A stretch of DNA of 64,000 bases from an uncultured Gemmatimonadales bacterium (GCA_963851265.1 CAWKNZ010000007.1:1-64000); one strand, 5' to 3'; counted from the first letter of the stretch, positions 7,805 to 64,000 are shown. Translations and numbers: made by a program. The notes: generated by a model from the letters alone, not told the origin.

Positions 7805-10800
7805 ATGCCCGCACCTCACCCGGCCGCCGCCGCGTCGCTCCGCGACGAGGCGCGCCTCGCCGCCGTCCGGCGTACCGCGCTGCTCGACACCGCCGCGGAC
7901 GAGGCGTTCGACCGGTTCACGCGCCTCGCCGCGCGACTGTTAGGCACGCCCGCGACCCTGGTGACGCTGCTCGACGCGGACCGGCAGTTCTGCAAGAGCG
8001 CGGTCGGACTCGACATGCCCCCGGCGCCGGAGCCGGCGCCGTCGCTGCCGCTCTCGCATTCGTTCTGCCAGCACGTGGTCGCGTCGGGCGCGCCGCTCGT
8101 GCTCGACGACGTGCGGAACGACGCCGTGCACGGCGCGAACGGCGCGGTTCGCGATTTCGGCGCGGTGGCGTACGCCGGCGTGCCGCTGCGGACGGCCGAC
8201 GGGCACGTCGTCGGCACGTTCTGCGCGCTCGACCGCGTGCCGCGCGCGTGGGACCCGGCGGACGTGGCGGTGCTCGAAGACCTCGCGCGGGCGGTGGTCA
8301 CGGAGATCGAGCTGCGGATGGCGCTGCGCGCAGCGGAGACGGCGCGCGAAACCGCGCGCGTGCTCCTCGACGCGAGCCCGGACGCGTTCGTGGCGATCGA
8401 TGCCCAGGACCGCGTGACGTTCATGAGCGAGCTCGCCGGACGGATTCACGCCTGCGATCCGATCGCCGCCGTCGGGCGGTCGCTGCACGGGTTGCTTCCT
8501 GCGGGCGATCGTGCGGTCGCGACGGCGCTCCACGCGCGCGTCCGGTCCACGGGCGCGCCGGCCGATATCGAAATGCTCTCGCGCGGTGCGGACGCCTCGG
8601 GCGAGCGCTGGACGGCCATGCACGCAGTCCCGAGTGGGACGGGGGGCGTCGCAATCGCGCTCCGCGACGTCACCGAGCGCCGGAACGCGGAGAACGCGTT
8701 GCGCGAGCGCGAGGCCGTACTGCGGCAGTTCGTCGAGCACACGCCGGCGGCGGTGGCGATGTTCGACCGGGAGATGCGCTACCTGGTGGCGAGCCGGCGG
8801 TGGTGCACCGATTACGGGCTCGCCGCGTCCGGGTTCACGACGGAAACGCTCGTCGGGACCGCCCACCACCTCGCGTTCCCCTACGCGCCCACGGGGTGGC
8901 AGGCGAACTACGCCCGCGTCCTCGCGGGGGACGTGGTGCGCTGCGAGGACGACACGTTCACGCGCGGCGACGGCGCGGTGGAACACGTGCGGTACGAGAT
9001 CCGCCCGTGGACGACCGGCGACGGCGCGGTGGGCGGCGTCGTCATGTTCACCGAGCTGACGACCGCGCAGGTGCGGGCGCAGGCGGAACTGCGCACGAGC
9101 GAGGCGCGCTACCGCGCACTCACCGAGAGTTCACCCGAACCCATCTACCTGCACCGCGACGGCCGCGTGCTGTACGCGAACCCGGCGGGCGCACGGCTGC
9201 TCGGCGCGCCGAGCCCCGCAGCGCTCGTGGGGGCGTCGGTGCTCAACGTCTTCCACGCCGACGACGCCGCGGCGGCGCGCGAGCACCTGGACGCACTCAC
9301 GCGCGGCGAGCCGCAGGACGGACTGTACCGCTACCGCCTCCTACGGGCCGACGGGTCGGAAGTGGAGGTCGAGTCGGTTTCCGCCCTCGTCCAGCTCGAC
9401 GGCTCGCCGGCCCTGCAGACGCTCTTCCGCGACGTGACCGAGCGCAACGCGCTCGAGCGCGAACTCACCTACCAGGCGTTCCACGACCCGCTCACCGGGC
9501 TCGCCAACCGGGCGCTGTTCCGCGACCGACTCGGCCACGCGCTCGCGCGGCTCGCGTCGGGGCGCATCGACCCGGCGGCCCACCAGCTCGCGGTCATCTA
9601 CCTCGACCTCGACGATTTCAAGACGGTCAACGATTCGTTAGGCCACGCGCACGGCGACGCGCTGCTGCGCGAGGTCGCGGCGCGGCTGCTGCGCGCCACC
9701 CGCGGCTGCGACACGGTCGCGCGCCTCGGCGGTGACGAGTTCGCGGCGCTGCTCGAGGGGATGACCTCCGCGTCCGACGCGCTCACCGTGGTGGAGCGGA
9801 TCACCGCGTCGCTTGCCGCCCCCGTGTGGATGGACGGCCGCGAGCTGCCCGCGCGCGGGAGCGTGGGCGTCGCGTACGCCCGCGGCGACGAGAGCGCCGA
9901 CGACCTCCTCCGCAACGCGGACGTCGCCATGTACCGCGCGAAGTCGCTCGGCAGGGGCCGACACGCCGTGTTCGAGCCCGGCATGCACGCCGCGCTCGTC
10001 GCGCGGTTGGAGATGGAGGCGGACCTGCGCCACGCCGTCGACCGCCCGGCCGCGGGCGGGCTGTGGGTGGCGTACCAGCCGGTGATCGACATCGCGACCG
10101 GGTGCGTCGTCTCGTTCGAGGCGCTCGCGCGGTGGACGCGGCCGAACGGCGCCGTGGTCCCGCCGCTGGAGTTCGTGCCGCTCGCCGAATCGAGCGGCCT
10201 CATCGTCCCGCTCGGGCGCTGGGTGTTGGGCGAGGCGTGCGCGCAGGCGGCGCGCTGGCGTGCGGCGACGGGGTGCGACGTGCGCGTCGCCGTGAACGTG
10301 TCGGCCCGGCAGCTCGCGCAGTCGGCGGGACTCGCGGGCGACGTGGAGTGCGCGCTCGCCGCGGCCGGACTGCCGGCGGCCGCACTCACCCTCGAGATGA
10401 CCGAAAGCGTGCTGATGCAGCGGACCGACGAGACGTTAGTCCGCCTCGGCGCGCTCAAGGCGACGGGCGTGCAGCTCGCGATCGACGACTTCGGCACCGG
10501 CTACTCGTCGCTCGCGTACCTGCAGCGATTCCCCGTCGACGTGCTGAAGATCGACAAGGCGTTCGTCGACGGCGTGGCGGACGAGGAGGGCGACCGCGCG
10601 ATCGCGCGCACGGTGCTCGCGCTCGGCGAGTCGCTCGGGCTGCGCATCGTCGCGGAGGGGGTGGAACGGGTGGAGCAGCGCGACGCCCTCGCCGCGATGG
10701 GCTGCGCGCAGGGGCAGGGCTACCTCTTCGCGCGCCCGCTCGCCGCGGCCGAGGCGGGGGACGTGCTCCGCACCCTCGGCGCGCGCGACCTCACGCCCGC

Positions 10801-10807
10801 GGACTGA
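7805..10807 (+). CDS. GAF-PAS-GGDEF-EAL c-di-GMP cyclase/phosphodiesterase
   Basis: HDPLTGLANR, ARLGGDEF with RGCD I-site, FEALARW, IDDFGTGYSSL, LKIDKAF; start ATG 7805. Confidence 0.92.
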   Translation: MPAPHPAAAASLRDEARLAAVRRTALLDTAADEAFDRFTRLAARLLGTPATLVTLLDADRQFCKSAVGLDMPPAPEPAPSLPLSHSFCQHVVASGAPLVLDDVRNDAVHGANGAVRDFGAVAYAGVPLRTADGHVVGTFCALDRVPRAWDPADVAVLEDLARAVVTEIELRMALRAAETARETARVLLDASPDAFVAIDAQDRVTFMSELAGRIHACDPIAAVGRSLHGLLPAGDRAVATALHARVRSTGAPADIEMLSRGADASGERWTAMHAVPSGTGGVAIALRDVTERRNAENALREREAVLRQFVEHTPAAVAMFDREMRYLVASRRWCTDYGLAASGFTTETLVGTAHHLAFPYAPTGWQANYARVLAGDVVRCEDDTFTRGDGAVEHVRYEIRPWTTGDGAVGGVVMFTELTTAQVRAQAELRTSEARYRALTESSPEPIYLHRDGRVLYANPAGARLLGAPSPAALVGASVLNVFHADDAAAAREHLDALTRGEPQDGLYRYRLLRADGSEVEVESVSALVQLDGSPALQTLFRDVTERNALERELTYQAFHDPLTGLANRALFRDRLGHALARLASGRIDPAAHQLAVIYLDLDDFKTVNDSLGHAHGDALLREVAARLLRATRGCDTVARLGGDEFAALLEGMTSASDALTVVERITASLAAPVWMDGRELPARGSVGVAYARGDESADDLLRNADVAMYRAKSLGRGRHAVFEPGMHAALVARLEMEADLRHAVDRPAAGGLWVAYQPVIDIATGCVVSFEALARWTRPNGAVVPPLEFVPLAESSGLIVPLGRWVLGEACAQAARWRAATGCDVRVAVNVSARQLAQSAGLAGDVECALAAAGLPAAALTLEMTESVLMQRTDETLVRLGALKATGVQLAIDDFGTGYSSLAYLQRFPVDVLKIDKAFVDGVADEEGDRAIARTVLALGESLGLRIVAEGVERVEQRDALAAMGCAQGQGYLFARPLAAAEAGDVLRTLGARDLTPAD

Positions 10808-11423
10808 CCGGCGGGTCGAGATTGCGCCGCGCCCACCACACGCGCTGCGCGACGGTGACGTAGACGAGCGCGGCCATGAGGCCGAACAGCTCGGGCAGGC
10901 GCGCCGGGAGCGCGAGAAAGAGGGCGTAGAAGAGCACCGTTTCGGTGCCCGCGATGAGCCCTGGGGGCATCGTCACGGTCGTCAGCTCGCCGCGCGCCGC
11001 CGCGCCCGCGGCGCGCCGTTCGAGCACGGCCGAGAGGTACATCCACGACGCCGCGTTCACGAAGAACGAACCGACGAGCCCCACGCACGCGGCGAGCGCG
11101 GCGAACGTCGGACGGCCGAGCGCCAGGCCGGTCGGCACGGCGGCGTAGACGACGAAGTCGAGGAGGATGTCGAGATACCCGCCGAAGTCGGTCTGCCGCC
11201 CGTGCACGCGCGCGAGCGTGCCGTCGAGACCGTCGAGCAGGCGGTTGGCGGCCCAGAGCGCGAGCGCGGCGCCGTACTCCCGACGCCACGCCGCCGCGCC
11301 GCACGCGAGCCCGACGAGGCAGGCGAGGAACGTGACGCCGTCGGGCGCGACGCGCGGGCCGAGCAGGCGGGCGAGCGGCTCGAGGAGGCGGTCCTTGAGC
11401 GCGCGGAGGACGTCGTCGAACAC
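10791..11423 (-). CDS. CDP-alcohol phosphatidyltransferase family protein (YnjF-like)
   Basis: Signature DGLDGTLAR..GRQTDFGGYLDILLD, hydrophobic helices, GTET motif near the C-terminus; last gene of the ABC operon. Confidence 0.88.
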   Translation of the reverse strand: MFDDVLRALKDRLLEPLARLLGPRVAPDGVTFLACLVGLACGAAAWRREYGAALALWAANRLLDGLDGTLARVHGRQTDFGGYLDILLDFVVYAAVPTGLALGRPTFAALAACVGLVGSFFVNAASWMYLSAVLERRAAGAAARGELTTVTMPPGLIAGTETVLFYALFLALPARLPELFGLMAALVYVTVAQRVWWARRNLDPPVSPRA

Positions 11424-11439
11424 GACCGGCGGCGTTACG

Positions 11440-12528
11440 TCAGGCAGAGCCGGTCGCGAAGACCGGGATCCGGGGCGCGTCGGCGACGACGCCGACGGCG
11501 GCGCCGGGCGCGGGCGCGGCCCCAGGCGGAGCGGCCGCTTCGACGACCGCCGGCGCGAAGCCGTCGCGGACGACGCGGAGCCGCACCGTGGTCTGGCGCG
11601 CGCGGTGCCGCACGTCGACCACGGTCGCCGCCGCCGCGCCCGGGTGACCCGGGGGGACGAGGCGGAGCGCGTCGGGGCGGACGACCGCCGCCGCGGGGCC
11701 GGCGGCCGCGCCGACGGCCCAGCTGCCTAACGCACACGCGAAGCACCCGGCCCCGTCGACGGTGCCCGCGAGCTCCGCGCCGACGCCGAGGAATCGCGCC
11801 ACGGCGAGCGACGCGGGGCGCTCGAACAACTCGGCCGGCGGTGCGACCTGCAGCACGCGCCGTTCGGCGAGCACCGCGACGCGGTGGGCGAGCAGTCCGG
11901 CCTCGTCGAGGTCGTGCGTGACGAGCACGAGGGACGGGCGCGCGGAGGCCGGGGCCTGCGTCCCCTCCTGCGCGCGCACGATGGCCTCGCGCACGTCGTC
12001 GCGCAGCGACGGGTCGAGCGCGGCGAGCGGCTCGTCGAGCAGCAGCACCGCGGGGCGCGCGACGATGGCGCGCGCGAGCGCGACGCGGTGGCGCTGACCG
12101 CCACTCAGCGTGTGCGGCATCCGCGCGGCGTACTCGCCCATTCGCACGAGCTCGAGCGCGTCGCGCACGCGGCGGTCGACGTCGCCGCGCGGCACGCGGC
12201 GCACGCGCAGCGGGAAGGCGACGTTCTCGTACACACTCAGGTGCGCGAACGGCGTCGGCGTCTGGTGCAGGTAGACGGCGTCGCGTCGCTCGGGGGCGAG
12301 GGCGGTGACGTCGCGCGGCGCGGCGCCGGGTGCCGCGATCCAGATGCGGCCGGCGCGCACCGGCTCGAGGCCGGCTACCGCGCGCAGCAGCGTGGTCTTG
12401 CCAGCACCCGACGCGCCGAGGACGACGAGGCGCTCACCCGCGGCGACGTCGAGCGATACGGGCTGCAGGCCCGGGCCGCTCCCGAACCCGACCTCGACCC
12501 CGTCGAGCCGGAGCGCGGGGGCGTTCAC
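11440..12528 (-). CDS. ABC transporter ATP-binding subunit
   Basis: Walker A GASGAGKT, signature LSGGQ, Walker B LLLDEP, H-loop VTHD; GTG start overlaps the upstream TGA (GTGA). Confidence 0.9.
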   Translation of the reverse strand: MNAPALRLDGVEVGFGSGPGLQPVSLDVAAGERLVVLGASGAGKTTLLRAVAGLEPVRAGRIWIAAPGAAPRDVTALAPERRDAVYLHQTPTPFAHLSVYENVAFPLRVRRVPRGDVDRRVRDALELVRMGEYAARMPHTLSGGQRHRVALARAIVARPAVLLLDEPLAALDPSLRDDVREAIVRAQEGTQAPASARPSLVLVTHDLDEAGLLAHRVAVLAERRVLQVAPPAELFERPASLAVARFLGVGAELAGTVDGAGCFACALGSWAVGAAAGPAAAVVRPDALRLVPPGHPGAAAATVVDVRHRARQTTVRLRVVRDGFAPAVVEAAAPPGAAPAPGAAVGVVADAPRIPVFATGSA

Positions 12529-13319
12529 AGCGTCGGGACGGCGGTGCGCCGCGCGACGACGCGGGCCGCGGCGAGCGCGAGGAGCGGCGGCGCGCTCAGG
12601 AGCAGCGCGCCCGTCGCCGCGTACCGGTCCTGCCCCGAGCGCACATACGCGAACACCTCGGTCGCGAGCGTGCGTACCAGGCCGCCGCCGACGATCTGCG
12701 TGAGCGCGACCTGCGCCCAGCTCACGAGAAACGCCAGCGCGGCGGCCTCCGCGATCTGGCGGCGGAGCGCGGGGAAGGTGACGAGGCGGAGCGTCTGCCA
12801 CGGCGATGCGCCGAGCGTTCGCGCCTCCTCCTCCGGCCCGGCGTCGTACGCGGCGAACACGCCGAGGAAGTAGAGCGCGAGATAGCCGACCGCGGGCACC
12901 GCGTGGGCGAGCAGGACGCCGGCGGCGGTGCCGCCGAGGCCGAGGCGCAGGAAGTAGTACTGCACGCCGACGGCGACGGCGAGCGGCGGCGCCGCCACGG
13001 GGAGGAAGGCGAGTGCGGCGCCCAGGCCGCGCCGCCACCCGCCGAGGCCGGCGAGCGCGCGGCCGACGGGCAGGCCGAGCGCGACGCCCACCACCGCGGT
13101 GCCGGCGCCTAACGCCACGCTCCGTGCGGCGGCGACCCCGAGCGCACCGCCGGCGACCTGACGCCAACTCTCCGCGGTGAGCCCGGACGGCACGAGCGCG
13201 GGATAGAACCACGTCTCGCCGACGGACCAGGCCACGAGCAGGCCGAACGGCGTGAGGGCGGAAGTGGCGAGCAGCGTGACGAGGATTGCGCGCCCGGCGC
13301 GCGCGAGCGCGGGACTCAC
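12525..13319 (-). CDS. ABC transporter permease 2
   Basis: Hydrophobic, EAA loop EEEARTLGASPWQTLRLVTFP; GTGA coupling at both ends. Confidence 0.88.
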   Translation of the reverse strand: MSPALARAGRAILVTLLATSALTPFGLLVAWSVGETWFYPALVPSGLTAESWRQVAGGALGVAAARSVALGAGTAVVGVALGLPVGRALAGLGGWRRGLGAALAFLPVAAPPLAVAVGVQYYFLRLGLGGTAAGVLLAHAVPAVGYLALYFLGVFAAYDAGPEEEARTLGASPWQTLRLVTFPALRRQIAEAAALAFLVSWAQVALTQIVGGGLVRTLATEVFAYVRSGQDRYAATGALLLSAPPLLALAAARVVARRTAVPTL

Positions 13320-14185
13320 GCGCCGTCGCGTGCGGCGCCGCGCGTCGCCCACTCGTGCGCCGCGACGGCGGCCGCGGCGAGCAGCAGAGCGAGCAGCGTG
13401 AGCACGTACGCTCCGCCGCGTCGGCCGAGGTCGAGATCGGCGTGGCGCTCGCGGATGAGCGACTGGAGCGGGAGCGGGTCGCTCGGCCCGAGCAGCGCGG
13501 CGGCTTCGTAGCTTCCCGCGACGAATGCGAACACCGCGACGGCCGACGGGAGCAGCGCGCGCCAGAGCAGCGGCCACGTGACGCGCCGGAGTACGGCCCA
13601 CGGCGCGGCGCCGAGCGTGCGCGCGGCCTCCTCGGCGGCGGCACCGCGCGCGGCGAGCGCCGAGCCCGCGACGAGCGCGAGGAAGGGGCACTCCTTCCAC
13701 GCGAGGGCGGCGACGAGTCCCACGCCCCACCGGTCGTAGACGAGGGGCGGCATCGCCTGCGGCGCGGCGATGAGGCCGGCGGCGTGGCCGAGCCGTGCGA
13801 GCAACCCGCTCTGGCCCAGGATCAGCACGGCCGACGACGCCGCGACGACCTGCGGGATGGGCAGCGGCACGACCGCGAGCGCGCGCGCGACGCGGTCGAC
13901 GGCGCGCGTGCCGCGGAAGGTGGTCGCGACGACGGTCGCGGCGGCCGTGGCGAGTGCGGTGGCGAGCAGCGCGGTGCGCAGCGTCCACGCGACCGACGCC
14001 CACGTGCGCGGATCGCCGAGCACGCCGCCGAGCAAGGCCGTGGTGAAGCCGGCGGCGCCGACGCCCGCGAGGCCCACGGCGACCGCGGCCGAGTACGCGA
14101 TGCCGACGAGCACGGGGGTGGCGACGAGGAGCGCGGCGACGAGCGGAGCGCCGCTCGACCGCGCGTGGCGTTGGGCCGGGCTCAC
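13316..14185 (-). CDS. ABC transporter permease 1
   Basis: Hydrophobic, EAA loop EEAARTLGAAPWAVLRRVTWP, WKECPF motif; GTGA coupling. Confidence 0.88.
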   Translation of the reverse strand: MSPAQRHARSSGAPLVAALLVATPVLVGIAYSAAVAVGLAGVGAAGFTTALLGGVLGDPRTWASVAWTLRTALLATALATAAATVVATTFRGTRAVDRVARALAVVPLPIPQVVAASSAVLILGQSGLLARLGHAAGLIAAPQAMPPLVYDRWGVGLVAALAWKECPFLALVAGSALAARGAAAEEAARTLGAAPWAVLRRVTWPLLWRALLPSAVAVFAFVAGSYEAAALLGPSDPLPLQSLIRERHADLDLGRRGGAYVLTLLALLLAAAAVAAHEWATRGAARDGA

Positions 14186-15468
14186 CGGGCCCGCACGCGG
14201 GCGCGCCAGTCCGTCAGCAGCCGCTCGCTGTAGGCTGGCGCGACCTCGGGGCGCGCGTAGGCGGCGAGCGTGTCGGGCGGGATCGCGTCGGCCGCGCGCG
14301 CGACGGAGTCGAACCGCGCGCGCCACGCGGCCGGCAGTCGCGTGCGGGCGAGCACCGTGCCGTCGGCCCAGACCTCGGGGCGCTGCTTCTCGAACTGGGC
14401 TTCGGGCGACAGGAGGAAATCGGCGACGACCATACCGCCCGCCGCGTCGGGGGCGTTGTACGGGATGGCAAGGTAGTGGGCGTTCGCGATGGTGCCCTCA
14501 CGGAGCAGGACGGCGCGCGCGGTGCGCGGAAGCACCCCCTGGCGCACCTTCGTCACCACGTCGTTCTGGTTGTTGGACATGGTGAAGTCGACCTCGCCGT
14601 TGGCGAAGAGGCGGTGCAGGTCGGCGACGCCTTCGGGGTACGTCACGCCGCCGCGCCAGAACGCGGCGCGATTGGAGTCGATCCAGGCAAATACCGCCGC
14701 GCGGCCGGCGAGGTAGTCGGCCTCGCGGAAGCCGCCCGCGAATCGGCGCACCCCGCCCCCGCGCGCGTACATCAGCCCTTTCAGGAACGTGAGCCCGGTG
14801 AAGCTCTGGTCGTGCACGAAGCGCCCCGGGTGCGCGCGGACGTAGGCGCCGAGTTCCGCGTACGTGCGTGGCGGTCGCGGCGTGCGGACGGTGTCGTAGA
14901 TGAGCGCGAACTGCACCGTCCCCCACGGGCTCTCGAACCCCGCCGGGTCCTGCTCGAAGTCCCGGCTGATGATCGGCGACGCGCTGTCGACGTACACGCC
15001 GTTGGGCGCGCGCGCCGCCCACGGCCCGAACAGCAGCGCCGCGCGGCGCAGGTTGGCGAACGCCTCGCCGTTGACCCAGACGAGGCTCGAGGTGCCGACC
15101 GCGCGTCCGGCGTCGCGTTCGACCACGAGGTCGTTCACGAGTTCGGCGCCCTGCCCGTCGACCGGCCTGAGCGTGATACCGTAGCGCTGCTTCACGCGCG
15201 GCGCGACCCAGCCGTCGACGAACGCGTTGATGGACGGGTCGCCGCGCCACATCGTCCAGACGACGGTCGTCCCACGGGCGCGCGCCACGATCGAGTCCCA
15301 CGGCAACGTGGCGGCCTGCCGAGGCGACAGGCGCGCGGCGGGCGGCGCGTTCGGCCGGCTGCATGCGCCGGATGCAGCCGTCGCGGCCGCGAGCGCCGCG
15401 GCGATGATCCGCCGGCGCCACGGTACAGGAAGGGTCGGCCGGAGTTCCGTGGATGACGTCGACGTCAC
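14182..15468 (-). CDS. ABC transporter substrate-binding lipoprotein (YnjB-like)
   Basis: Lipobox-like ASGAC; WDSIVARARGTTV, ESPWG and GTIANAHYLAIPYNA..FLLSPEAQ motifs recalled from the YnjB family. Start uncertain (GTG 15468 or ATG 15543). Confidence 0.8.
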   Translation of the reverse strand: MTSTSSTELRPTLPVPWRRRIIAAALAAATAASGACSRPNAPPAARLSPRQAATLPWDSIVARARGTTVVWTMWRGDPSINAFVDGWVAPRVKQRYGITLRPVDGQGAELVNDLVVERDAGRAVGTSSLVWVNGEAFANLRRAALLFGPWAARAPNGVYVDSASPIISRDFEQDPAGFESPWGTVQFALIYDTVRTPRPPRTYAELGAYVRAHPGRFVHDQSFTGLTFLKGLMYARGGGVRRFAGGFREADYLAGRAAVFAWIDSNRAAFWRGGVTYPEGVADLHRLFANGEVDFTMSNNQNDVVTKVRQGVLPRTARAVLLREGTIANAHYLAIPYNAPDAAGGMVVADFLLSPEAQFEKQRPEVWADGTVLARTRLPAAWRARFDSVARAADAIPPDTLAAYARPEVAPAYSERLLTDWRARVRAR

Positions 15469-15651
15469 GAGGAGGTTCGGGAGGGTGAGCGCGGACGCGT
15501 CTAGCGAGATTCGTGCGACATCGCGTCCCGGTCCCGCTACCATCCGTTCTCCTGCGGCAATCGTAATCAAGCAGGTGCGCTCCGCGCCGACTGCCCTCCG
15601 CCCCACGCGCGCTTCTCCGTGCTCGTCACCCGTCCTCCCCGTCGCGGCTCC

Positions 15652-18519: not shown

Positions 18520-18577
18520 TGGCACCTCTCGTGTCTCGATCGACGCGCCGCGTGCTCCCGGATGGGGGCTCGCTCGC

Positions 18578-19045
18578 GTGACGGAGCGGGCGACCGTCAC
18601 GGCGCGCTTCGCCGCGGGCGCGGTCGGCGTCCTCACGGCGCACCAGGCTGCCGTATGGGCGCTGCACCGCGCGGGCGTGGTGCCGTGGCCCGCGTACTCG
18701 GTGGTGCCGACGCGGCCGTTCGGCGTCCCGCAGGTGCTGTCGGCGGCCTTCTGGGGGGGCGTGTGGTGGGTCGCGCTCGGGCCGGTCGTCGAGCGTGCCG
18801 AATCGCGCGCGGGCTACGCGGCGCGCGCGGCCGTGTTTGGCGCGGTGCTGCCGACGGCCGTGGGGGCGGTGCTCGTGGCGGCCGGGCGCGGGGCCCCGCG
18901 GGGCGACGCGCGCCCGGCGACGCTGCTCGCCGCCGGGCTGGCCGTGAACGCGGCCTGGGGGCTTGCCGCCGCGGCCGTGGTCTGGTTCACGCGCGCGCGA
19001 CCGCCTGGTAGCGGCGCACGAAGCGCGCGTCGATCGCGCGCTTGA
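18578..19045 (+). CDS. Hypothetical membrane protein (about 4 TM helices)
   Basis: Hydrophobic 155-aa ORF with PTRPFGVPQVLSAAFWGGVW, directly after the receptor. Confidence 0.65.
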   Translation: MTERATVTARFAAGAVGVLTAHQAAVWALHRAGVVPWPAYSVVPTRPFGVPQVLSAAFWGGVWWVALGPVVERAESRAGYAARAAVFGAVLPTAVGAVLVAAGRGAPRGDARPATLLAAGLAVNAAWGLAAAAVVWFTRARPPGSGARSARRSRA

Positions 19046-20123: not shown

Positions 20124-20152
20124 GTCGTTAGGCAGGGCCGGGGCGCCGCACG

Positions 20153-21706: not shown

Positions 21707-21757
21707 CGGCCGGCCCTCATGCCGCGGGCCTCGCCGGGCACTTCTGCGGCGCGCGCT

Positions 21758-22456: not shown

Positions 22457-22632
22457 GCCCGTAGATGCCCGGTTCACAATCCAACAGATTGCAGCACACG
22501 TATACCAGCACAGACGTCTCCGTCGCCAGGCGTGACGGGACCGTCACCCCTGGCGACGCTCGGAACATCCGCCCGCCGCCCGCACCTTCATCTAGCGTCC
22601 GGCACGCGCCGGCGTATTCGACGAGGCACGAC

Positions 22633-23487: not shown

Positions 23488-23489
23488 CC

Positions 23490-50269: not shown

Positions 50270-50439
50270 GATCGGCCTGTGCACCCGCGAGCGGGGCGCC
50301 GGAGGACAGGAAAGGGCAGGGCCGCGCGCGCCGGGACGGCCGCGCGCGCCCACAATGTATGACACGGGGGCGCCCGTCCGTCGAGCCCGGACGCAAAACA
50401 AGTCGCCGCCGCGGGCCCCGGCGCGCCTAACGAGGAGCC

Positions 50440-52512: not shown

Positions 52513-52635
52513 GAATTCGGAGCGAAGCGGCGCGGCGTCGCGCCAGACGAGTGTGGGGCGTGCGTGAAACGCGCCGTGGGACCGCACGGGCGGCACGCGT
52601 GGCGGCGCACCGGGACGCCGCTGCATCTTGCCCGC

Positions 52636-55482: not shown

Positions 55483-57571
55483 CGCCCGAACCCGACGGGC
55501 GGCCGGGCGCGCCAAGGCGGACGACCGGCGGCTGCTGCGCCCCCGGCTGCTGGCCGCCCTGCCCACCTCCTCCCTGCCCGCCACCACCGGAGCCGCCGCC
55601 TCCCTGCTGGCTGCCCTGGCCGCCTCCACCGCCGCCGCCGCCGGAGCCCGACGTTCCCCCGCCGCCCCCGCCGCCCGTGCCCTGGCCGCCACTCTTGGCG
55701 CCGCCCTGGCCGCCGCCGCCCTGGCCGCCGCCGCCCGACCCCGACTTCCCTCCCTGGTCGCCTTCGCCCGACTTCATCGGCGGTGGGTTGGCCGGCCGTC
55801 CGCCGGGCGTGTTGCCGCCCGCGGCGTCCTCGTCGCTCCCGCCGCGCGGGCGCACGCGCTGCCCGTTGCGCAACTCGTCCGTCGGGTTCACCACCACGAG
55901 ATCGCCCGGCTTGAGCCCCGTCAGCACCTCCATGCCCGACCCGTAGTCGCGGCCGATGGTGACCGCGCGAATCTGGAGCACCGAGTCGCGCCCGACCACG
56001 GCGACCTGCGCGCCCTGCTGCCGCACGAGCAGCGCGCCGGCCGGGATCATCACCGGGGCGTTGGCCCGCGTCAGTCGAAAGCTCACCGTCGCGAACATCC
56101 CCGGCAGCAGGCGGCGGTCGAGGTTGGCCAGGTCCACTTCGGTGAGCAGCGTGCGCGTGGCCGCGTCGAGCGCGCCCGCCGTGCGCACGACCTTGCCGGT
56201 GAACGTGCGCTGCGGCATGTCGGGCACGTGCACCGTCGCGTGCAGCCCGGTGCGCACGTCGGCGGCGTAGCTCTGCGGCACGCCCACGTAGAGGCGCACC
56301 GTGTCGGCCTGCGCGACGCGGAACAGACTCCCCGATCCGCCCACGCCGCTCGCGCCCGCCGACCCGGACGAGCCGCCCGACGCGCCGGAGCTGCCCGACC
56401 CGCCTAACGCACTCCCCGAGCTTCCGCCCACGCCGGACGTCGTGCCGCCCGCGCTCGTCGCCTGGCCGGGGTTGGAGGTGAGGATGGTGTTGCCGCCCAG
56501 GCTGGCCGGGTTGGTGCTCGTCGACGAGCCGCCGCCCGAAACGAGCACGCCCTCGTCCACGTTGCGCGACGTGACGATGCCCGAGAACGGCGCGGTCACG
56601 GTCGCGTAGCCGACGAGCTCCGCGTTCCGCCGCACGTTCGCTTCGGCGGCCGCGACGCTCGCCACCGCCGCGTCGTAGTTCGCCTGCCGCTGGTCGAGCT
56701 CCTCGCGCGTGATCACCGAGTCGCGGTACAGGATGCGCCAGCGCGCGAGCTCGACGCGCGCGAGGCGGAGCGCGGCCGCGGCCTGGCTGGCGTTGGCGCG
56801 CGCCTCGCGCAGCTGCTCTTCCACGTCGGGCACGTCGAGCACGGCGAGCGGCTGCCCCGCCCGCACGCGCTGCCCGATGTCGACGAGGAAGCGCCGCACG
56901 TACCCCGTCGCGCGCGCGTACACCGCGGCCTCGCGCTGCGCCTGCACGTTGCCCGGCAGGTTGAACTCCGCCACGCTGTCGCCCGAGGCGACCTTGGTCA
57001 CGGTCACGGCCGGAATGCTGTCGTTGTGCGCGCTCTGCTGGGCCTGCTGCTGCAACTTCTTGTCGCGGTTGCGGCGCGGCAGGATGCCGATCAGCAGAAA
57101 GAGCGCGAGCACGACGACGACCACGATCGCGCCGATGATGATGACGCGCCGCCGCACGGGCTTCGGGTGATCGCCTTTCTTGTCGTCCTGTCCGTCCTTC
57201 CGCGCGCCCGGGCCCGGCGGGGGTGGCGGGCGCGGTGGCGCCGGTGCGGGCGGCGGCGCCGCCGCCGCCGGGATCTGGACGTCGACGACGACGTGCGTTC
57301 CCGCACCCGGGGCGGCGCCGGGCGCCGCACCCTGGCCCTGCGGGGCGGCACCCGGCGGCGGGCCGCCCGGCCCCGGCGGCGCACCCTGCGGCGGTGCGCC
57401 CGCGCCGGGTGAGACGTCGATGTGCACCTGCACCGGCGACGGTGCAGGCTGCCCGGCCGGCGGCGGCGCGGCCGGGGGCGGGCCGGGGGGCAGCGACCCA
57501 GGCGGGCCGGCCGATTGCGGGCCGGGCTGTCCCCCGGGGGCGGACCGACTCGGGGTCCGGTCGTCAGACAT
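55457..57571 (-). CDS. RND periplasmic adaptor (MFP) with long low-complexity extensions
   Basis: TM anchor, VYARATGYV..VDIGQRV, APFSGIVT, LLPGMFA. Confidence 0.88.
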   Translation of the reverse strand: MSDDRTPSRSAPGGQPGPQSAGPPGSLPPGPPPAAPPPAGQPAPSPVQVHIDVSPGAGAPPQGAPPGPGGPPPGAAPQGQGAAPGAAPGAGTHVVVDVQIPAAAAPPPAPAPPRPPPPPGPGARKDGQDDKKGDHPKPVRRRVIIIGAIVVVVVLALFLLIGILPRRNRDKKLQQQAQQSAHNDSIPAVTVTKVASGDSVAEFNLPGNVQAQREAAVYARATGYVRRFLVDIGQRVRAGQPLAVLDVPDVEEQLREARANASQAAAALRLARVELARWRILYRDSVITREELDQRQANYDAAVASVAAAEANVRRNAELVGYATVTAPFSGIVTSRNVDEGVLVSGGGSSTSTNPASLGGNTILTSNPGQATSAGGTTSGVGGSSGSALGGSGSSGASGGSSGSAGASGVGGSGSLFRVAQADTVRLYVGVPQSYAADVRTGLHATVHVPDMPQRTFTGKVVRTAGALDAATRTLLTEVDLANLDRRLLPGMFATVSFRLTRANAPVMIPAGALLVRQQGAQVAVVGRDSVLQIRAVTIGRDYGSGMEVLTGLKPGDLVVVNPTDELRNGQRVRPRGGSDEDAAGGNTPGGRPANPPPMKSGEGDQGGKSGSGGGGQGGGGQGGAKSGGQGTGGGGGGGTSGSGGGGGGGGQGSQQGGGGSGGGGQGGGGQGGQQPGAQQPPVVRLGAPGRPSGSGASSGSGRP

Positions 57572-60500
57572 GGGCAGGCACGGAGCGTGGGGAAGTCGTC
57601 GTGGGCTGGCGACGGTCGCCGACGCGGCGGTCGCCGTCCGGGTGCCGCCAGGGCGCGTCCGCGCCGTCGTGATCACCGTCGTGGCCGTCGCCGTCGTGGT
57701 CGTGGCCATCGCCGTTCGAGCCGTTCCCGTCGGAACCGTTCCGGCGCTCGCCCTGCCGGCGCTCCGGCGGCGTGTCGGCGGCGTCGGCCGCGGGCGCGGC
57801 CGGCTGGCCGTTGGGCCGGCCGCCGTTTCGCTTGAGGTCCTCACGCTGCTTCTCGCGGCCCGTGAGGGCGGGCTCGGGCAGCTCCTCGTCCGGCGCGGGC
57901 GCCTTCTTCCGCATCAGCGAGTACAGGGTCGGCAGCACGAACAGCGTGTACAGGCTCGCGACGAGCAACCCGCCGATCACCGCGCGGCCGAGCGGGGCGT
58001 TCTGCTCGCCACCCTCGCCGATGCCTAACGCCATCGGCAGCATGCCGAGGATCATCGCGAGCGCGGTCATGATCACGGGGCGCAGGCGCGTCACGCCGGC
58101 GCTGACCGCCGCGTCGTGCGCGTCCTTGCCTTCGGCCCGCTCGTCTTCCGCGAACGTCAGCAGCAGCACCGAGTTGGACGTGGCCACGCCGAGCGCCATG
58201 ATCGTCCCCATGAGCGACGGCACGTTCCACGTCGTGTGCGACGTGAACAGCCCCCACATCGTCCCCGCCAGCGCGCCCGGCAGCGCGAGCACGATGATGA
58301 GCGGGTCGACCCACGACTGGAAGTTGACGACGAGCAGCACGTACACGAGCAGCATCGCCGCGAGGATGCCGAGCACGAGCCCCTTGATCGACGTCCGCAT
58401 GCTCTCGACCTGCCCGCGGACGTGCAGTTCGGAGCCCTTCGGCAGCTTCTCCGACTGCGTGATCTTCTCGATGTCGGAGGCGACGCCGCCGAGGTCGCGG
58501 TCGGTCGCGCTCGCGTAGACGTCGAACGAGGGCTGCACGTCGTAGTGCGTGACGATGGCCGGCGCGAGATCGCGCGACTCGGTGACGAGGTTGGCGAGCA
58601 GCTGCGGCTGCGCACTGCCCCCCGGGGGCGCGACCGGCGTGCGCGCGAGCGCGTCGATCGACGACAGCTGGTAGGGCGGCACCTGCACGGCCACCTGGTA
58701 CTGCACGCCATTGCTCGGGTCGAGCCAGAAGTTGGGCGCGCTCTGGAACGATCCGCTCAGCGCGATGAGCATCGAGCTGGCGACGTCGCGCGTGCTCACG
58801 CCCGCCTGTTCGGCGCGCAGGCGGTCGATCGAGAAGAAGAGCTCGGGCGCCGTGGTCACCTGCTGCACGCGCACGTCGCTCGCGCCGGGCACGCGTTTGG
58901 CGCGGTCGGCGATGCGCGTCGCGATCGCGTAGTTCGCCTGCGCGTTGCGCCCGGTGATCTGCACGTCGATGGGCGACGGCAGGCCGAGGTTGAGGATGCG
59001 CGTGACGATGTCGGCCGGCTGGAAGTAGAACTCGACGTCCGGGTACTCGGCGCGCAGCGTGTCGCGCAGCTCCGCCTGGTACGCGGCCACCTTGCCCGTG
59101 TGCTTCTCTGCGAGCGACACGAGGATCTCGCCGTCGAACCCGCCGATCGTCGCCTGGTCGCCGGTCGCGAGCGTGACGCCGCCGCCGGCAAGCCCGACGT
59201 CGTCGAGGATCAGGCCGATCTCGCTCGGCGCGATCACGCGGCGGATGGTGCGCTCGACCGAGCCGAACACGAGTTCGGTCTCTTCGAGACGCGTGCCCGG
59301 ACGCGCGCGCAGATGCAGGCGCAGCTGGCCGGCGTCGACGCTGGGGAAGAAGTCCTGCCCGATCTGCGGCATCAGGGCCAGGCTGCCGAGCGCGAACACG
59401 GCCGCGATCGCGAGCGTCCAGACCGGCACGCCGATCGCGCCGGCGAGCAGGCGGTGGTAGCCACCCCGCAGCTTCTCGAACTGTCGGTCGATGTGCACGT
59501 TGAGCCGCCACGTCCACCCGGCCTTCATCTTCTTCTGTTCCTGGTCGGCGCCGTGGTGCAGGTCGGCCTCCTTCTTCAGGAGATACCGGGCCATCGTCGG
59601 CACGAGCGTGCGCGACAGGATGTACGACGCGAGCACCGCGAAGATCACGGACATCGCGAGCGGGCGGAACAGCGACGCCGCCGGCCCGCTCAGGAAGAAG
59701 ATCGGGACGAAGACGATCGAGATCGACAGCGACGACACGAACGCCGGCACCGCGATCTGCGCCGCGCCGTCGAGGATCGCCTGGAGGAGATCCTTACCCT
59801 CGGCCAGGTTGCGGTGCATGTTCTCGATCTCGACCGTCGCGTCGTCGACCAGGATGCCGATGGCGAGCGCGAGGCCGCCGAGCGTCATGATGTTGAGCGA
59901 CTGCCGGAGCGCCCACAGGCAGACGACCGACGTGAGGATCGACAGCGGGATCGACGTCACGACGATGAGCGTGCTGCGCCACGAGCCGAGGAACAGCAGG
60001 ATCATCGTCGCCGTGAGGCACGCCGCGATGAGCCCCTCGCGGATGACCCCCTGGATCGACGCGCGCACGTACGTCGACTGGTCCGAGATCACCGAGAGAC
60101 TGATGCCGGCGGGGATCGACGCCTGGGCGCGGCCGAGCAGCTCGCGCACCTGCTTCACCACCTTGAGCGTCGACGCGCTGCCCGTCTTGAGCACTTCGAG
60201 GTAGGCGCCGCGGCGGCCGTTCACGCGCACGATGTTGGTCTGCACGCCGGCGCCGAGCCGCACCTGCGCGACGTCGCGGATGTAGACCATCTGCCCGTTC
60301 ACCTGCTTGATGGGCAGGTCGTTGAGGCGGTCGGCCACGGTCGGGCTCGCGTCGAGGCGCACGCGGTACTCGCGGTCGCCGAGCCGCGCCGTGCCCGTCG
60401 GGAGCACCACGTTCTGCGTGTTGATCGCCGACGAGACGTCGCTCGGTGTGAGGCCGAGCGCGTACAGCCGGTTGAGGTCGATGTCGACGTTCACCTGCTT

Positions 60501-61044
60501 GGGCGCGCCGCCGAACACCGGCGGGATGTTGGTGCCCTGCGCGGTCACGAGCTGATTGCGGACGAACTGGTTGCCCGCGTCGTTCAGCTCCTGCTCCCCC
60601 ACGTCGCCGGCGATGCCGATCTGCATCACCGGGACGTCGGTCGCGTTGAAGCGGATGATGTAGGGCGGCGTGATCCCCGGCGGCATGGTGCCGCACCGCG
60701 GACTGCGACGAAGCGGTGATCTGCGCGACGGCGTTCTCGACGCTCGTGCCCGGCTGCAGGAAGACGCGCACGACCGCGAGGCCGTCGAGCGCCTCGCTCT
60801 CGACGTGCTCGATGTCGGTGACGCCGATCGTGTACGACCGTTCGGCGACGGTCATCACGCGCCCTTCCATCTCCTTGGCCGGCAGCCCGTTGTACACCCA
60901 CACGGCCGAGACCACCGGCAGGTTGATGGCCGGGAAGATGTCGGTCTGCATCGAGAGCGCCGCGTACGCGCCCACGAGGATCATGAGGATCGCGAGGCAC
61001 GCCGTCGTGAACGGCCGCCGCAGCGAGAGTTTGACGATCCACAT
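57564..61044 (-). pseudogene. RND efflux permease with a 1-bp insertion frameshift near 60691 (1159 aa if repaired)
   Basis: N-terminal MWIVKLSLRRPFT...SSQSAVR is in one frame and MPPGITPP...GILVDDATVEIEN...RLRPVIMT in another; span 3481 nt = 3x1160+1. Confidence 0.85.
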
Positions 61045-61076
61045 CGGTCAGCGCCTCGCCGTGAGAAACGGGACGG

Positions 61077-62891
61077 TCACAGCTCGCGCCCGACGAACGC
61101 GTTGAGGCTCGTGCGGGCGAGGGCGTAGTCGTACGTGGCGTTCACGAGCTGCTGCTCGGCCTGCGTGAGCTGCTGCTCGGCGTTGCTGAGGTCGAGTACG
61201 GTGGCAACGCCCGCGCCGTACCGCACGTTCTGCACGCGATAACTCTCGCGAGCCACCTGCACCGCCGTTTGCGACAGGCGCACCTGCTGTGCCGTGAGCG
61301 CGATGTTGCCGAGCCGCCTTTCGACTTCCGACCGCGCCTCACGCTCGGCGTCGGATGCCGACACCTGCGCCACCTGCGACGCGGCCGCGGCGCGGTCCAC
61401 CTGGTACTCGCGCACGTTGCCGTTGAAGATCGGGTAGCTCGTCGTGAGCGCGACGGCCCACCCCTGCCGCGCGCCGGCGAGGGCGAGCCCGCTCGGCGCC
61501 ATCGTGTAGCTCGTGCCGAGCCGGACGGTCGGGAGGTACTGCGCGCGTGCGGCCCCGACGCCCGCCTCGGCCGCGCGCGCGGAGTCGCGGGCCGCGACGA
61601 GCGTGGGCGCCGCGCGCAGGGCGAGCGCGAGGATCGCCGTGTCGGCGAGGGCGAGCGGGCGCGGGACGATCGCGGTGTCGAGCCGCGCCTCGACCGCGCC
61701 CGGCACGCCGGTCAGGCGGCCTAACGCGTAGGCCGACGCGCGGCGCTGGATCGCGGCCTGGGCGTAGGCGACGCGCGCGTTGTTGAGCAGCAGCTCGAAC
61801 TGCAGCACGTCGGCCGGGGTCGCGGTGCCCACCGCGCGCCGGCGCCCCGCCTGGCGGGCGTCCTCCGCCGCGCGACGCACCTGCGCGAGCGCGACCGCCT
61901 CGAGGTCCTCGGACCGTCGCACGTCGTAGAAGACGGTTTCCACCTGTTCGACGACGAGGAAGCGCTGCGAGACGGAGATCGCCTCGGCCGCCCGCGTCTC
62001 GGCGCGCGCACGGCGCGTGTCCGCCGCGCGCCGTCCGCCGGTGAACACGTCGTAGCCGGCCACCAGCGTCATGTACGCGGTGTTCCCGATCGAGGCGGGC
62101 GTGCCGGGCGTCGTGGTCCCACCACCCGCACCCGTCTGCGCGACCGGTGCCGACGGCACGGCGATCCCGCGCGAGAGCGTCGGCGTGCTCGATGCCCGGT
62201 TGGACGAGCTACCCGAGCCGAACGTGCCCCCGAATCCGCCCGCCGCGGTGCCCGAGCTGTCGCTGCCGCCGGTGGTGGTCGTGCCCGTGCCCCCGATGCC
62301 GGTGGGACCGATCACGCCCGCGAGCGACTGCCCCGCGAGCGTAGGCGTGCCGTTGCGTAGCACGCTCGAGTTCACGGTGAGGGACGGCAGGTACTCGCCA
62401 TACGCGACGCGCTCGGCCGCGTGCGCCAGGCGCACGACCGCGCCCGCCCGCGCGGTCGTCGGACTGAGTTCGATGGCGCGCGCCACGGCCTCCGTGCGGC
62501 GCAGCGTGGCGCTCACCCGGAACGGCGGCAGGTTGGCGACGACGTCGGAGGTGTCGGCGGGAGGGCCCGACGGCACGTTACGCAGGCCGAGTCCGCCGGT
62601 CGCGCCGCTTGCCGCGCCGCCCGGCGCAGCGCCCGCCCCGCGTCCGCCGGCCGCGCCGGCCGCGCCGCCAGCCGCGCCGCCGCCCGACCCGGAGCCAGAG
62701 CCGGCACCGCCAGAGCCGGCACCACCCGAGCCGGCTCCGCCGCCACCCGCCCCCCCGCCGCCCGACCCTCCTCCACCGCCGCCTCCGCCTCCGCCCCCGC
62801 CACCCTGCGCGTGCGCCGCCGCGCCGCACACCGCGACGCACGCCAGTGCGCCCAGCGCTCGTCGAAGCGCTCCGGCCGTATGCCCCCGCAT
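61077..62891 (-). CDS. TolC-family outer-membrane efflux protein with poly-Gly N-terminus
   Basis: Signal peptide AHA-Q, GEYLPSLT, AQYLPTV, RYGAGVATVLD; first gene of the RND operon. Confidence 0.85.
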   Translation of the reverse strand: MRGHTAGALRRALGALACVAVCGAAAHAQGGGGGGGGGGGGGSGGGGAGGGGAGSGGAGSGGAGSGSGSGGGAAGGAAGAAGGRGAGAAPGGAASGATGGLGLRNVPSGPPADTSDVVANLPPFRVSATLRRTEAVARAIELSPTTARAGAVVRLAHAAERVAYGEYLPSLTVNSSVLRNGTPTLAGQSLAGVIGPTGIGGTGTTTTGGSDSSGTAAGGFGGTFGSGSSSNRASSTPTLSRGIAVPSAPVAQTGAGGGTTTPGTPASIGNTAYMTLVAGYDVFTGGRRAADTRRARAETRAAEAISVSQRFLVVEQVETVFYDVRRSEDLEAVALAQVRRAAEDARQAGRRRAVGTATPADVLQFELLLNNARVAYAQAAIQRRASAYALGRLTGVPGAVEARLDTAIVPRPLALADTAILALALRAAPTLVAARDSARAAEAGVGAARAQYLPTVRLGTSYTMAPSGLALAGARQGWAVALTTSYPIFNGNVREYQVDRAAAASQVAQVSASDAEREARSEVERRLGNIALTAQQVRLSQTAVQVARESYRVQNVRYGAGVATVLDLSNAEQQLTQAEQQLVNATYDYALARTSLNAFVGREL

Positions 62892-63049
62892 CTGCCCTCG
62901 CTCACTGATCCGGCACCGCCACGCGACTCGGCACCAGACTGCCGCCTCGCGTGGAACCCCAGGCCGCGCGCCATCGCACGACTCGCACCGTCTCGGGGAA
63001 TACGCCCCGGCCCGTCGACGCGTTGCCTGCGGGTCGCGTCCGCGCTCCT

Positions 63050-63090
63050 CCGACGCGCCCCCGACGCGCCCCCGACGCGCCCCCGACGCG
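63050..63090 (+). repeat. Intergenic 11-bp tandem repeat CCGACGCGCCC (three full units plus a partial one)
   Basis: Direct reading of the tolC-ppc divergent region. Confidence 0.8.
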
Positions 63091-63209
63091 TTCCTCGCCC
63101 GTCGCCCACGCGACCCCGGCGCCGCCCGGCCGCACGCCGACCGGGCGTGCCGTTTGCGGAACACGCGCAGGCGAGCAGGCCGGAGCGCCCCGTCCCGTTG
63201 GAGACCGTC

Positions 63210-64000
63210 GTGCTGAAGTCCGCTGTCGATCCGTCCCCGGGCCCCGCGGCCCCGGCGCCCCTGCCTAACGCAACCGCCGGTCCGGCCCACGACGCCGCCC
63301 GCGACGCGACGCGCGCCGAGGATCAGCCCCTCCACGAGGACGTGCGGTGGCTCGCCGGCGCCCTGGGGCGCGTCATTCGGCGGCTCGAAGGGGACGACGC
63401 GTTCCACACGGTCGAAGGGCTCCGCCGCGCCTGTCGGGCCCGGCGGCACGGCGACCCGGGCGCGCCCGCGCTGCCGGCGCTCCTCGCGCAGGTCGAGGCG
63501 CTCACGCCCGAGGCGTCCGCGATCGCGGCGCGCGCGTTCACGCTCTTCTTCCTGCTCATCAACACGGCGGAGCAGGTGCACCGCGTCCGACGCCGTGCCG
63601 ACTACCTCGGCGCGGACGGCGTGGAGCGGGCACCCCAGCCAGCGTCCGCGCGGTGGACGATGCGCCGCCTGCGCGACGAGGGCCGTAGCGCGGCCGAGGT
63701 GGCCGACGCGCTCGGGCGGCTCGCGATCCGCCCCGTGCTCACCGCGCACCCGACCGAGTCCACCCGCCGCACGCTCCTCGCGCTGCAGGCGCGCGTGGCC
63801 GACCTGCTGCTGCGCCGCGAGGCGAGCGCGGCCGCCGAGCGCGTCGCCGTCGAGGAGGCACTCGACGGCGAGGTCGAGTTGCTCTGGCTCACGGCCGAGG
63901 TGCGCCACGACCGGCCGACCGTGATGGACGAGGTGAGCACCGTGCTCTGGTACCTCGAGACGCGGCTCCTCGACGCCGGCGCGCACGCGCACGACGCCCT
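63210..64000 (+). CDS. ppc: Phosphoenolpyruvate carboxylase, N-terminal part (runs off the window)
   Basis: Not in the ORF track. Reads LHEDVRWLAGALG, ARAFTLFFLLINTAEQVHR, PVLTAHPTE, LWLT.EVR..RPTVMDEV; GGAG upstream of GTG 63210. Confidence 0.9.
   Translation, partial: MLKSAVDPSPGPAAPAPLPNATAGPAHDAARDATRAEDQPLHEDVRWLAGALGRVIRRLEGDDAFHTVEGLRRACRARRHGDPGAPALPALLAQVEALTPEASAIAARAFTLFFLLINTAEQVHRVRRRADYLGADGVERAPQPASARWTMRRLRDEGRSAAEVADALGRLAIRPVLTAHPTESTRRTLLALQARVADLLLRREASAAAERVAVEEALDGEVELLWLTAEVRHDRPTVMDEVSTVLWYLETRLLDAGAHAHDA

Follow-up and report, generated by a model that had tools for sequence, protein, structure and literature searches.

The sequence of an uncultured Gemmatimonadales bacterium raises the question why a non-palindromic word, GTTAGGC, recurs so often on both strands of a stretch of 64,000 nucleotides (GCA_963851265.1, CAWKNZ010000007.1:1-64000). 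This stretch, referred to as the window, opens contig C7 in the source genome G000 (4.6 Mb, 12 contigs, 94% complete), and the closest sequences to its PanB are from Gemmatirosa sp. and Gemmatimonadaceae. The results show that the word, better written as YGTTAGGC, is a real and large signal, common to two phyla and apparently undescribed. The explanation that we favour, with a probability of about 0.5, is that YGTTAGGC is an uptake-sequence-like recombination anchor that accumulates by molecular drive, with GC-biased conversion around its copies.

Copies of the word in the window

The initial annotation listed 24 GTTAGGC heptamers, and all were found at their positions, 13 on the plus and 11 on the minus strand. 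Dinucleotide shuffles of the window gave a mean of 2.05 heptamers and a maximum of 7 in 100 shuffles. As had been reported, 21 of the 24 are the full octamer CGTTAGGC. Genes were called anew with a purpose-built Markov model (3,758 genes, 88% coding in G000), the error of which is inherited by all frame counts given here. With these calls, 18 of the 24 copies again supply the TTA codon in Leu-Gly, the readings Pro-Asn at 42980 and Arg-Leu-Thr at 19159 hold, and the copies at 37275 and 50425 lie between genes. The copy at 20127, placed earlier just upstream of a gene start, is likewise intergenic. At 63263 the proposed Pro-Asn reading is possible on the plus strand, but Leu-Gly can be read on the minus strand, and no gene was called there. 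The features are:

7939..7945, plus strand: GTTAGGC preceded by T; TTA-GGC, Leu-Gly, in a GGDEF/EAL gene
9637..9643, plus strand: CGTTAGGC; Leu-Gly, in the same GGDEF/EAL gene as the 7939 copy
11725..11731, minus strand: CGTTAGGC; Leu-Gly, in an ABC ATPase gene
13107..13113, minus strand: CGTTAGGC; Leu-Gly
19159..19165, plus strand: CGTTAGGC; antisense frame, CTA in Arg-Leu-Thr
20127..20133, plus strand: CGTTAGGC; intergenic (20105-20153)
21791..21797, minus strand: CGTTAGGC; Leu-Gly
24719..24725, plus strand: CGTTAGGC; Leu-Gly, in a radical-SAM gene
33308..33314, plus strand: CGTTAGGC; Leu-Gly
37275..37281, minus strand: CGTTAGGC; intergenic
37486..37492, plus strand: CGTTAGGC; Leu-Gly, in a Clp ATPase gene
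39226..39232, plus strand: GTTAGGC preceded by T; Leu-Gly, in the same Clp ATPase gene as the 37486 copy
42980..42986, minus strand: CGTTAGGC; the gene reads CCT-AAC, Pro-Asn
44303..44309, plus strand: CGTTAGGC; Leu-Gly
46117..46123, plus strand: CGTTAGGC; Leu-Gly, in metX
47346..47352, plus strand: GTTAGGC preceded by A; Leu-Gly, in panB
48246..48252, minus strand: CGTTAGGC; Leu-Gly
50425..50431, minus strand: CGTTAGGC; intergenic
53148..53154, plus strand: CGTTAGGC; Leu-Gly
55287..55293, plus strand: CGTTAGGC; Leu-Gly
56402..56408, minus strand: CGTTAGGC; Leu-Gly, in an RND adaptor gene
58023..58029, minus strand: CGTTAGGC; Leu-Gly, in an RND permease gene
61719..61725, minus strand: CGTTAGGC; Leu-Gly, in a TolC-like gene
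63263..63269, minus strand: CGTTAGGC; no called gene, Pro-Asn on plus or Leu-Gly on minus
7639..63570, no strand: GC-biased halo at four-fold degenerate sites, about 300 bp on each side of every window copy

Enrichment in the genome, reading frames and spacing

GTTAGGC is present 1,762 times in G000, for an order-2 Markov expectation of 96, and CGTTAGGC 1,396 times, for an expectation of 50. They are the top-ranked 7-mer and 8-mer under Markov orders 1-3. The base before GTTAGGC is C in 79% and T in 14% of copies, and CGTTAGGC and TGTTAGGC are enriched 28-fold and 26-fold over the order-2 model. The heptamer core of the earlier (C)GTTAGGC thus stands, and its first base is corrected to C or T. 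Apart from codon periodicity, no flanking consensus outside YGTTAGGC was found in the G000 copies. Absence from the rest of the genome, which would have counted against such a signature, is ruled out by 33-55 copies per 100 kb on each of the 12 contigs. A codon-aware null, proposed as a check, leaves an enrichment of about 20-fold (1,295 coding copies versus 49-82 in 10 synonymous-codon permutations).

A translation-level effect, such as a TTA-GGC codon pair under bldA-like control, or a compositional artefact could be considered, given that 997 of the 1,762 copies read TTA-GGC and that these account for 997 of the 1,291 TTA codons of G000. This is refuted by the antisense copies (203 CCT-AAC and 72 CTA-AC), the 23 copies in the third frame (GTT-AGG), and those in stop codons and spacers: the word overlaps 208 stop codons (127 TAA and 81 TAG), 274 copies are intergenic, 193 overlap gene ends, and the spacer density is 50 versus 32 per 100 kb. 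Moreover, TTA-GGC requires a preceding G, as it was found after 784 of 2,872 NCG codons and after 3 of 2,338 C-ending codons. Between an NCG codon and GGC, 27% of leucines are TTA, versus 0.3% before other G-starting codons; in the NCG-Leu-GGC context TTG is raised about 4.5-fold and CTA is not raised. The frames are also used more evenly in lower-GC genomes, and an origin in translation or composition is hardly credible.

Chi and KOPS (FtsK-orienting polar sequences) are over-represented non-palindromic octamers tied to recombination or DNA handling. The initial annotation had argued against such polarity from the strand balance, and the contig C2 bears this out: 188 of 1,170 opportunities are occupied on the leading and 109 of 648 on the lagging strand (p=0.69). 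Unlike Chi and KOPS, the word has no leading/lagging bias, and the halo described below is two-sided. Its strand skew along C2 tracks gene orientation. A dif-like site is located at C2:1368949, where gene orientation switches.

The copies are evenly spaced and repel one another below about 400 bp. With integron arrays excluded, 114 of 1,714 gaps are 30-400 bp long, half of the 219+/-12 expected under the null. The synonymous null, the frames, the strand data and the spacing together support the earlier reading of the word as a non-polar, genome-wide signature at the DNA level.

Gain and retention among congeners

Orthologues were compared in 293 alignments of G000 with its congener G004. The two genomes share 54 of 94 Leu-Gly copies of G000, while identity at four-fold sites is only about 0.5-0.7. 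At conserved [APST]-L-G sites, 46 copies are present in both genomes, 16 in G000 only and 34 in G004 only, and 176 sites have none. Unshared copies face ordinary codons (CTC, TTG, CTG) and no insertions were seen in these alignments, so copies arise through base substitution, in all reading frames and in spite of a strong codon bias towards GC, and not through insertion. Orthologous copies in congeners exclude an assembly artefact as their source. A search of 62 panB loci (810 kb) for lineage-specific substitute words in motif-poor relatives gave none.

A GC-biased halo around each copy

In the lineage that bears a copy, silent A/T is about halved near it. At four-fold sites of G000, A/T rises with distance from a copy, from 3.2-3.3% (10-50 bp) through 4.2% (100-200 bp) and 6.5% (1-1.5 kb) to 7-8% (more than 2 kb), equally on both sides, and a control word gives 5.2 to about 6%. 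In the window A/T rises from 2.8% at 12-150 bp to 4.3-5.4% at greater distances. The trend is the same at two-fold sites (2.9 to 9.8% and 6 to 14% A/T) and in spacers (21 to 28%), and for 15 amino acids the odds ratio of far to near sites lies within 1.55-3.0. Around near-matches distant from any perfect copy the halo is slight or absent. Within 406 long genes the odds ratio is 1.63 [1.48-1.79], with 0.96-1.18 for four controls, so foreign genes are not the explanation. The halo follows the copy: where only G004 has one, the A/T ratio is 0.40 against a baseline of 0.83, and where only G000 has one it is 0.86 against 1.20.

The halo recurs in G004 (2.3 to 7.7%), in G001 and G008, and, in a different family, in G210 (about 8 to 11.7%). 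Hardly any gradient is seen in G012 and in Verrucomicrobiota, where copies are about 700-800 bp apart. Within 100 bp of copies the normalised identity for G/C-to-G/C differences is slightly lower (0.29 versus 0.345), and A/T states near copies are less shared between congeners. Together these point to added A/T-to-G/C conversion rather than to less mutation. The density of the word climbs with the GC push, from 1 of 51 to 104 of 290 opportunities. That a word with A and T should peak in density under the strongest GC push suggests that one process makes both word and halo. Genes with low GC at third codon positions (GC3) are depleted of the word, a relation to be read with the effect of the halo itself on GC3.

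Distribution across genomes, phyla and phages

The word is patchy in both phyla in which it was found, Gemmatimonadota and Chthoniobacterales-type Verrucomicrobiota. Among 41 Gemmatimonadales relatives, CGTTAGGC has at least 300 copies in 11 (up to 6,360), 173-240 in 4 and at most 65 in 26. YGTTAGGC reaches at least 500 copies in 9 of 251 Gemmatimonadota genomes: 6 of 54 from the family of the bacterium, 3 of 113 from one other family (all three in one genus) and 0 of 84 elsewhere. With 32-80 copies, the records named Gemmatimonas and Roseisolibacter that were tested are motif-poor. The densest genomes, G012 (6,360 copies in 5.1 Mb) and G273 (4,562 in 3.2 Mb), have one copy per 700-800 bp. The unpublished genomes G011, G084, G123, G202 and G414 count only in these tallies, G011 also in the pilin alignments below.

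We scanned 185,579 genomes for three copies in mixed orientation, 200-230 bp apart, a pattern that detects very dense genomes only, so moderately rich lineages may exist elsewhere. The 33 loci found are 17 from Gemmatimonadota and 16 from Verrucomicrobiota, the latter mostly Chthoniobacterales. One of them, L443, is a local match, as its whole genome is not enriched (1,056 versus 1,003 for the control). In Verrucomicrobiota the word is spelled TCGTTAGGC, with 386 octamers for 7 expected and a similar mismatch profile. Of 151 Chthoniobacterales genomes, 16 have at least 150 copies and 6 at least 900. Close triple copies in other phyla were rejected as hexamer microsatellites, not dispersed copies (flanks of 80 of 120 loci, from 10 of 64 parts scanned). 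These (GCGTTA)n repeats, mostly apparently intergenic, occur in Planctomycetota, Bacteroidota, Thioalkalivibrio and other phyla (L293, L298, L315, L329, L336, L362, L368, L370 and others).

Among 110 viral loci, chosen by two or three copies, 61 have fewer than five copies and a few have dispersed coding copies. These are L547 (35 copies in 17 kb), L566 (25 in 20 kb), L533, L525 and L500; portal, terminase, integrase, tail or other phage genes are carried by L547, L566, L533/L535 and L500. In L566, a temperate-looking phage, many copies lie at gene junctions, giving stop codons or Met-Pro-Asn starts. In the viral contig L521 (118 kb, 42% GC), CCGTTAGGCGATGGGA recurs 14 times on one strand between small genes at 132-3998, resembling a cassette array or promoter repeats.

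The word could instead be the selected binding site of an intracellular protein that organises the chromosome or protects the genome by marking it as self, with the halo as a side effect. In favour of such a protein are a sharp, graded specificity shared by both phyla, the even spacing, positional retention, the word in phage genes and a gap of 45 kb around parAB and parS in G000. The gap is absent in G004 and G012, and partial in G001. Between close relatives density differs by over 100-fold and every intermediate occurs, which resembles a drive that is turned on and off rather than a required architecture; conversion of silent A/T that follows the lineage is not predicted by binding alone. 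We regard such a protein as quite improbable.

In the gap itself (C1:182877-227963) 0 of 65 opportunities are occupied, silent A/T is high (about 6-10%) and synonymous identity to G004 is low; under the favoured uptake reading it would be a recombination-cold zone. As a general feature, a parS exclusion zone was rejected on the relatives just named. A perfect 16-bp palindrome, TGTGGCACGTGCCACA, lies on both sides of mnmG (C1:192709 and 195715), upstream of parA, and G001 and G004 retain it. It is likely a variant parS, of which G012 has the canonical form.

Match to the integron attC core

Integron attC boxes have the consensus RYYYAAC and GTTRRRY, and GCCTAAC is the R'' box of the aadB cassette (PMC12901181). 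In G000, cassette arrays from about 188 kb on C10 and at the start of C6 have attC sites that are mostly GCCTAAC ... YGTTAGGC. The word matches this core letter for letter, and it is the commonest core in the arrays of G000, G025 and G027. As the latter two genomes are motif-poor and use the same core with its pyrimidine ahead of GTT, the genome-wide word is not the source of the attC spelling. Coincidence seems unlikely; a shared target that gave rise to convergent specificity may lie behind it.

On the integron hypothesis, IntI or attC-targeting mobile elements spread the word as attG-like secondary sites or decoys. The word is R' or R'' of the order's attC sites, and IntI is mobile and present in both phyla. 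The arrays, on the other hand, hold only 36 of the 1,762 G000 copies; the other 1,726 are single, dispersed and mostly in ordinary genes, without partner box or hairpin. Adjacent perfect words in attC order occur 8 times genome-wide, 5 of these in arrays, and the full attC layout, in which R'' and R' boxes stand inverted at 45-150 bp with a hairpin between them behind a cassette gene, was seen in arrays only. Other GTTRRRY words are enriched at most 2.2-fold in G000. IntI does not track the word, and this phylogenetic profile weakens the case: it is full-length in many motif-poor genomes, was not found in the motif-rich G008, G018 and G273, and has been interrupted in G000 and fragmented in G012. 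Synonymous substitution without insertions is not a product of site-specific recombination either. An integron origin of the dispersed copies is thus very improbable.

In the G000 integrase gene (C6:3005-6044; L082, L119, L122), an element of about 2.1 kb interrupts the sequence close to the C-terminal catalytic region. The element encodes a large serine recombinase on the opposite strand and has an 11-bp word common to both junctions. It is possibly an excisable switch on integron activity. The arrays (C10:186000-215025 and C6:1-3500) are long, with small cassette genes, many of which we take to resemble bacterial toxin-antitoxin pairs. Two copies of an IS110-like transposase gene in them are flanked by attC R'' words.

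Search for a protein that reads the word

Competence genes of G000 are comEC, dprA, comEA beside pilB/pilT, comM, and an orphan FimT-like pilin (C7:452372-452776, L167) that ends in GRxR, a DNA-binding motif of FimT-like pilins (PMC8897410). This pilin is matched in 37 of 41 relatives, a spread that suggests order-wide natural competence. Of the pilins listed, two stand-alone ones were profiled; a ComP_DUS profile match (E=0.025) was below the cut-off. ComEA-type domains were rejected as reader since they do not track the word.

A methyltransferase site, one option of the initial annotation, is not supported so far. The sole intact adenine methyltransferase candidate found, an Eco57I-like enzyme (C7:582086-585511), does not track the word: it is present in 40 of 41 relatives, including motif-poor ones, and its alignment groups by taxonomy. 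With an adjoining SNF2 helicase gene it makes up C7:579717-585511 (L081), and its constancy is unusual for a gene of restriction-modification type. PF01555 was not found in G000 and is present in 2 of 5 motif-rich genomes, and PF02384 gave no other shared enzyme; for C5 methyltransferases the screen was confined to a short-motif regular expression. When G000 proteins were compared by tblastn with Verrucomicrobiota DNA (about 0.8 Mb drawn from several genomes, each covered for less than half), the matches were mostly housekeeping ones. Genes beside clustered copies or beside repair and competence genes held nothing distinctive.

Proposed mechanism

In the favoured mechanism, a putative protein would favour incoming DNA bearing the word, and homologous recombination would then centre on each copy. 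Biased uptake and recombination would push the word upward by molecular drive, while heteroduplex repair in short tracts would turn A/T into G/C and so produce the halo. GC-biased gene conversion occurs in bacteria. More tentatively, the uptake preference may have been shaped by the attC core, and the presence of one word in two unrelated phyla would then be accounted for. We favour biased uptake with homologous recombination because a single new part would at once bring a T/A-bearing word to fixation in the face of GC pressure and make a two-sided halo with diminishing returns below about 400 bp. Drive alone can generate uptake-sequence distributions, and with short fragments symmetric uptake peaks form on the uptake signal sequence (USS), which are gone when fragments exceed the spacing or sites are dense (PMC7811141). 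By analogy, the near loss of the halo in the densest genomes may correspond to this loss of peaks.

Several observations weigh against this mechanism. No protein tracking word density was found among the candidates profiled in Gemmatimonadales relatives and motif-rich Verrucomicrobiota; G000 being 94% complete, a word-reading gene may be missing from the assembly. Motif-poor genomes are included among the relatives with comEC (40 of 41), dprA (38 of 41), the FimT-like pilin (37 of 41) and a polA-linked pilin (40 of 41). No residue was seen that clearly separates motif-rich from motif-poor competence proteins, and the FimT-like query matched nothing in 5 motif-rich Verrucomicrobiota genomes. 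Phage genes bear the word at host-like density, which uptake accounts for only in prophage-forming phages. Some shift towards GC is seen in orthologous DNA without a copy as well, which means that a regional cause or the loss of copies plays a part. Word density increases with amino-acid identity to G004, from 0.6 to 1.6 per 1,000 codons (rho 0.26, 282 genes); USS and the DNA uptake sequence (DUS) are reported to be under-represented in strongly constrained genes (PMC7811141). Finally, the G000 halo is confined to transition-linked pairs (odds ratio 2.01; transversions 1.02 [0.86-1.21]), a pattern for which G:T-specific repair is at least as good an explanation as conversion. This specificity was not reproduced in four pooled relatives (1.73 versus 1.85, small counts).

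A repair ratchet, the main rival, would need no DNA exchange. Here the word is a strand-choice or loading signal for local mismatch repair, comparable to MutH and GATC and possibly methylated. G:T would be repaired to G:C within a few hundred bases with preference for the word-bearing strand, so that copies are gained and kept. The even spacing, the symmetric distance effect, the transition specificity in G000, the denser conserved genes and the phage copies fit such a ratchet, and mutS and mutL are present. Elhai's model for HIP1 (highly iterated palindrome 1) predicts saturation near one site per 1,000 nt (PMC4390886), close to the densest genomes here. However, G/C-to-G/C divergence near copies is slightly higher, not lower, and transition specificity was not reproduced in the pooled relatives. 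Strand-blind G:T to G:C repair would presumably erode the T/A-rich word unless a second bias protects it. Two biases are thus needed, and no candidate enzyme emerged: Vsr was found in 1 of 5 genomes and NucS in 0 of 5, the repair radical-SAM protein TIGR03916 is in 10 of 41 relatives and not in G012, and none of the methyltransferases profiled tracks the word. We consider the ratchet possible but doubtful. If correct, it would be an undescribed system for strand choice or G:T repair.

A bolder form of the uptake mechanism has an attC-tuned uptake receptor in both phyla that harvests environmental cassettes and drives the word into thousands of positions in chromosomes and phages, with each copy a GC-biased conversion hot spot. 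This is unlikely. If true, the word would be a self-building bacterial counterpart of a recombination-hotspot motif, instead of an eroding one.

Relation to known systems

The word works like USS/DUS and HIP1 but is not assigned to either, being denser rather than sparser in constrained genes and not palindromic. The earlier suggestion of an uptake-sequence-like or HIP1-like signature agrees with its behaviour: enrichment beyond the synonymous null, no replichore polarity and even spacing. As with USS and DUS, the word is non-palindromic, on both strands at about 0.4-1.4 per kb, arises by point substitution and is evenly spread, and competence genes of the type IV pilus kind, a FimT-like pilin among them, are present in the host. 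The depletion in low-GC3 genes, to which the halo itself may contribute, could be a further likeness. Unlike them, it is patchy in two unrelated phyla rather than family-wide, has a motif-centred GC halo, few terminator-type inverted pairs and no extended flanking consensus, and is denser in conserved genes. Known USS/DUS words differ from YGTTAGGC. The predicted receptor of USS in Pasteurellaceae is the FimT-like PpdA/ComN, and the receptor of DUS in Neisseriaceae is ComP (bioRxiv 10.1101/2025.06.16.659825).

For HIP1 of cyanobacteria, GCGATCGC, a connection with transformation (PMC13756078) or with a repair ratchet (PMC4390886) has been proposed. Like HIP1, the word is a hyper-abundant octamer substituted into coding and non-coding DNA, conserved in place, polyphyletic and saturating near one per kb. 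In contrast to HIP1, it is not palindromic, no co-distributed methyltransferase was found and the 62 motif-poor panB loci have no substitute word. It also differs from the SlmA-binding (SBS) and Noc-binding (NBS) sequences, matS and parS in having no conserved regional confinement or exclusion.

A literature search on the word, Gemmatimonads, gene conversion, attC with transformation, and Chthoniobacterales gave no description of the word, with subscription journals and supplementary k-mer and methylome tables largely outside its reach; no published description of a motif-centred GC halo was found either. An uptake word would add, across two phyla, a third kind of sequence-specific self-DNA recognition beside those of Neisseriaceae and Pasteurellaceae. 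It could serve in practice to tag DNA for the transformation of intractable lineages, and its match to the attC core would link competence directly with the capture of integron cassettes. As congeners differ in the copies that they carry and the halo moves with the copies, the halo offers a natural experiment at base resolution on the open question why bacterial silent sites are GC-rich.

Other observations

An Rfam scan of the window gave nothing but a SAM_alpha riboswitch (RF00521, 39.2 bits) at 44055-44129, upstream of genes leading to metX, and its conserved words dominate related panB loci. In G000, AGCGCT is strongly avoided (2,466 versus 4,470 under an order-4 Markov model), as are GGCGCC and GAGCTC (order 3). 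Small genes at C10:154750-157879, beside a bacteriochlorophyll-type gene, presumably resemble the light-harvesting genes pufA/pufB, and the organism may be a phototroph.

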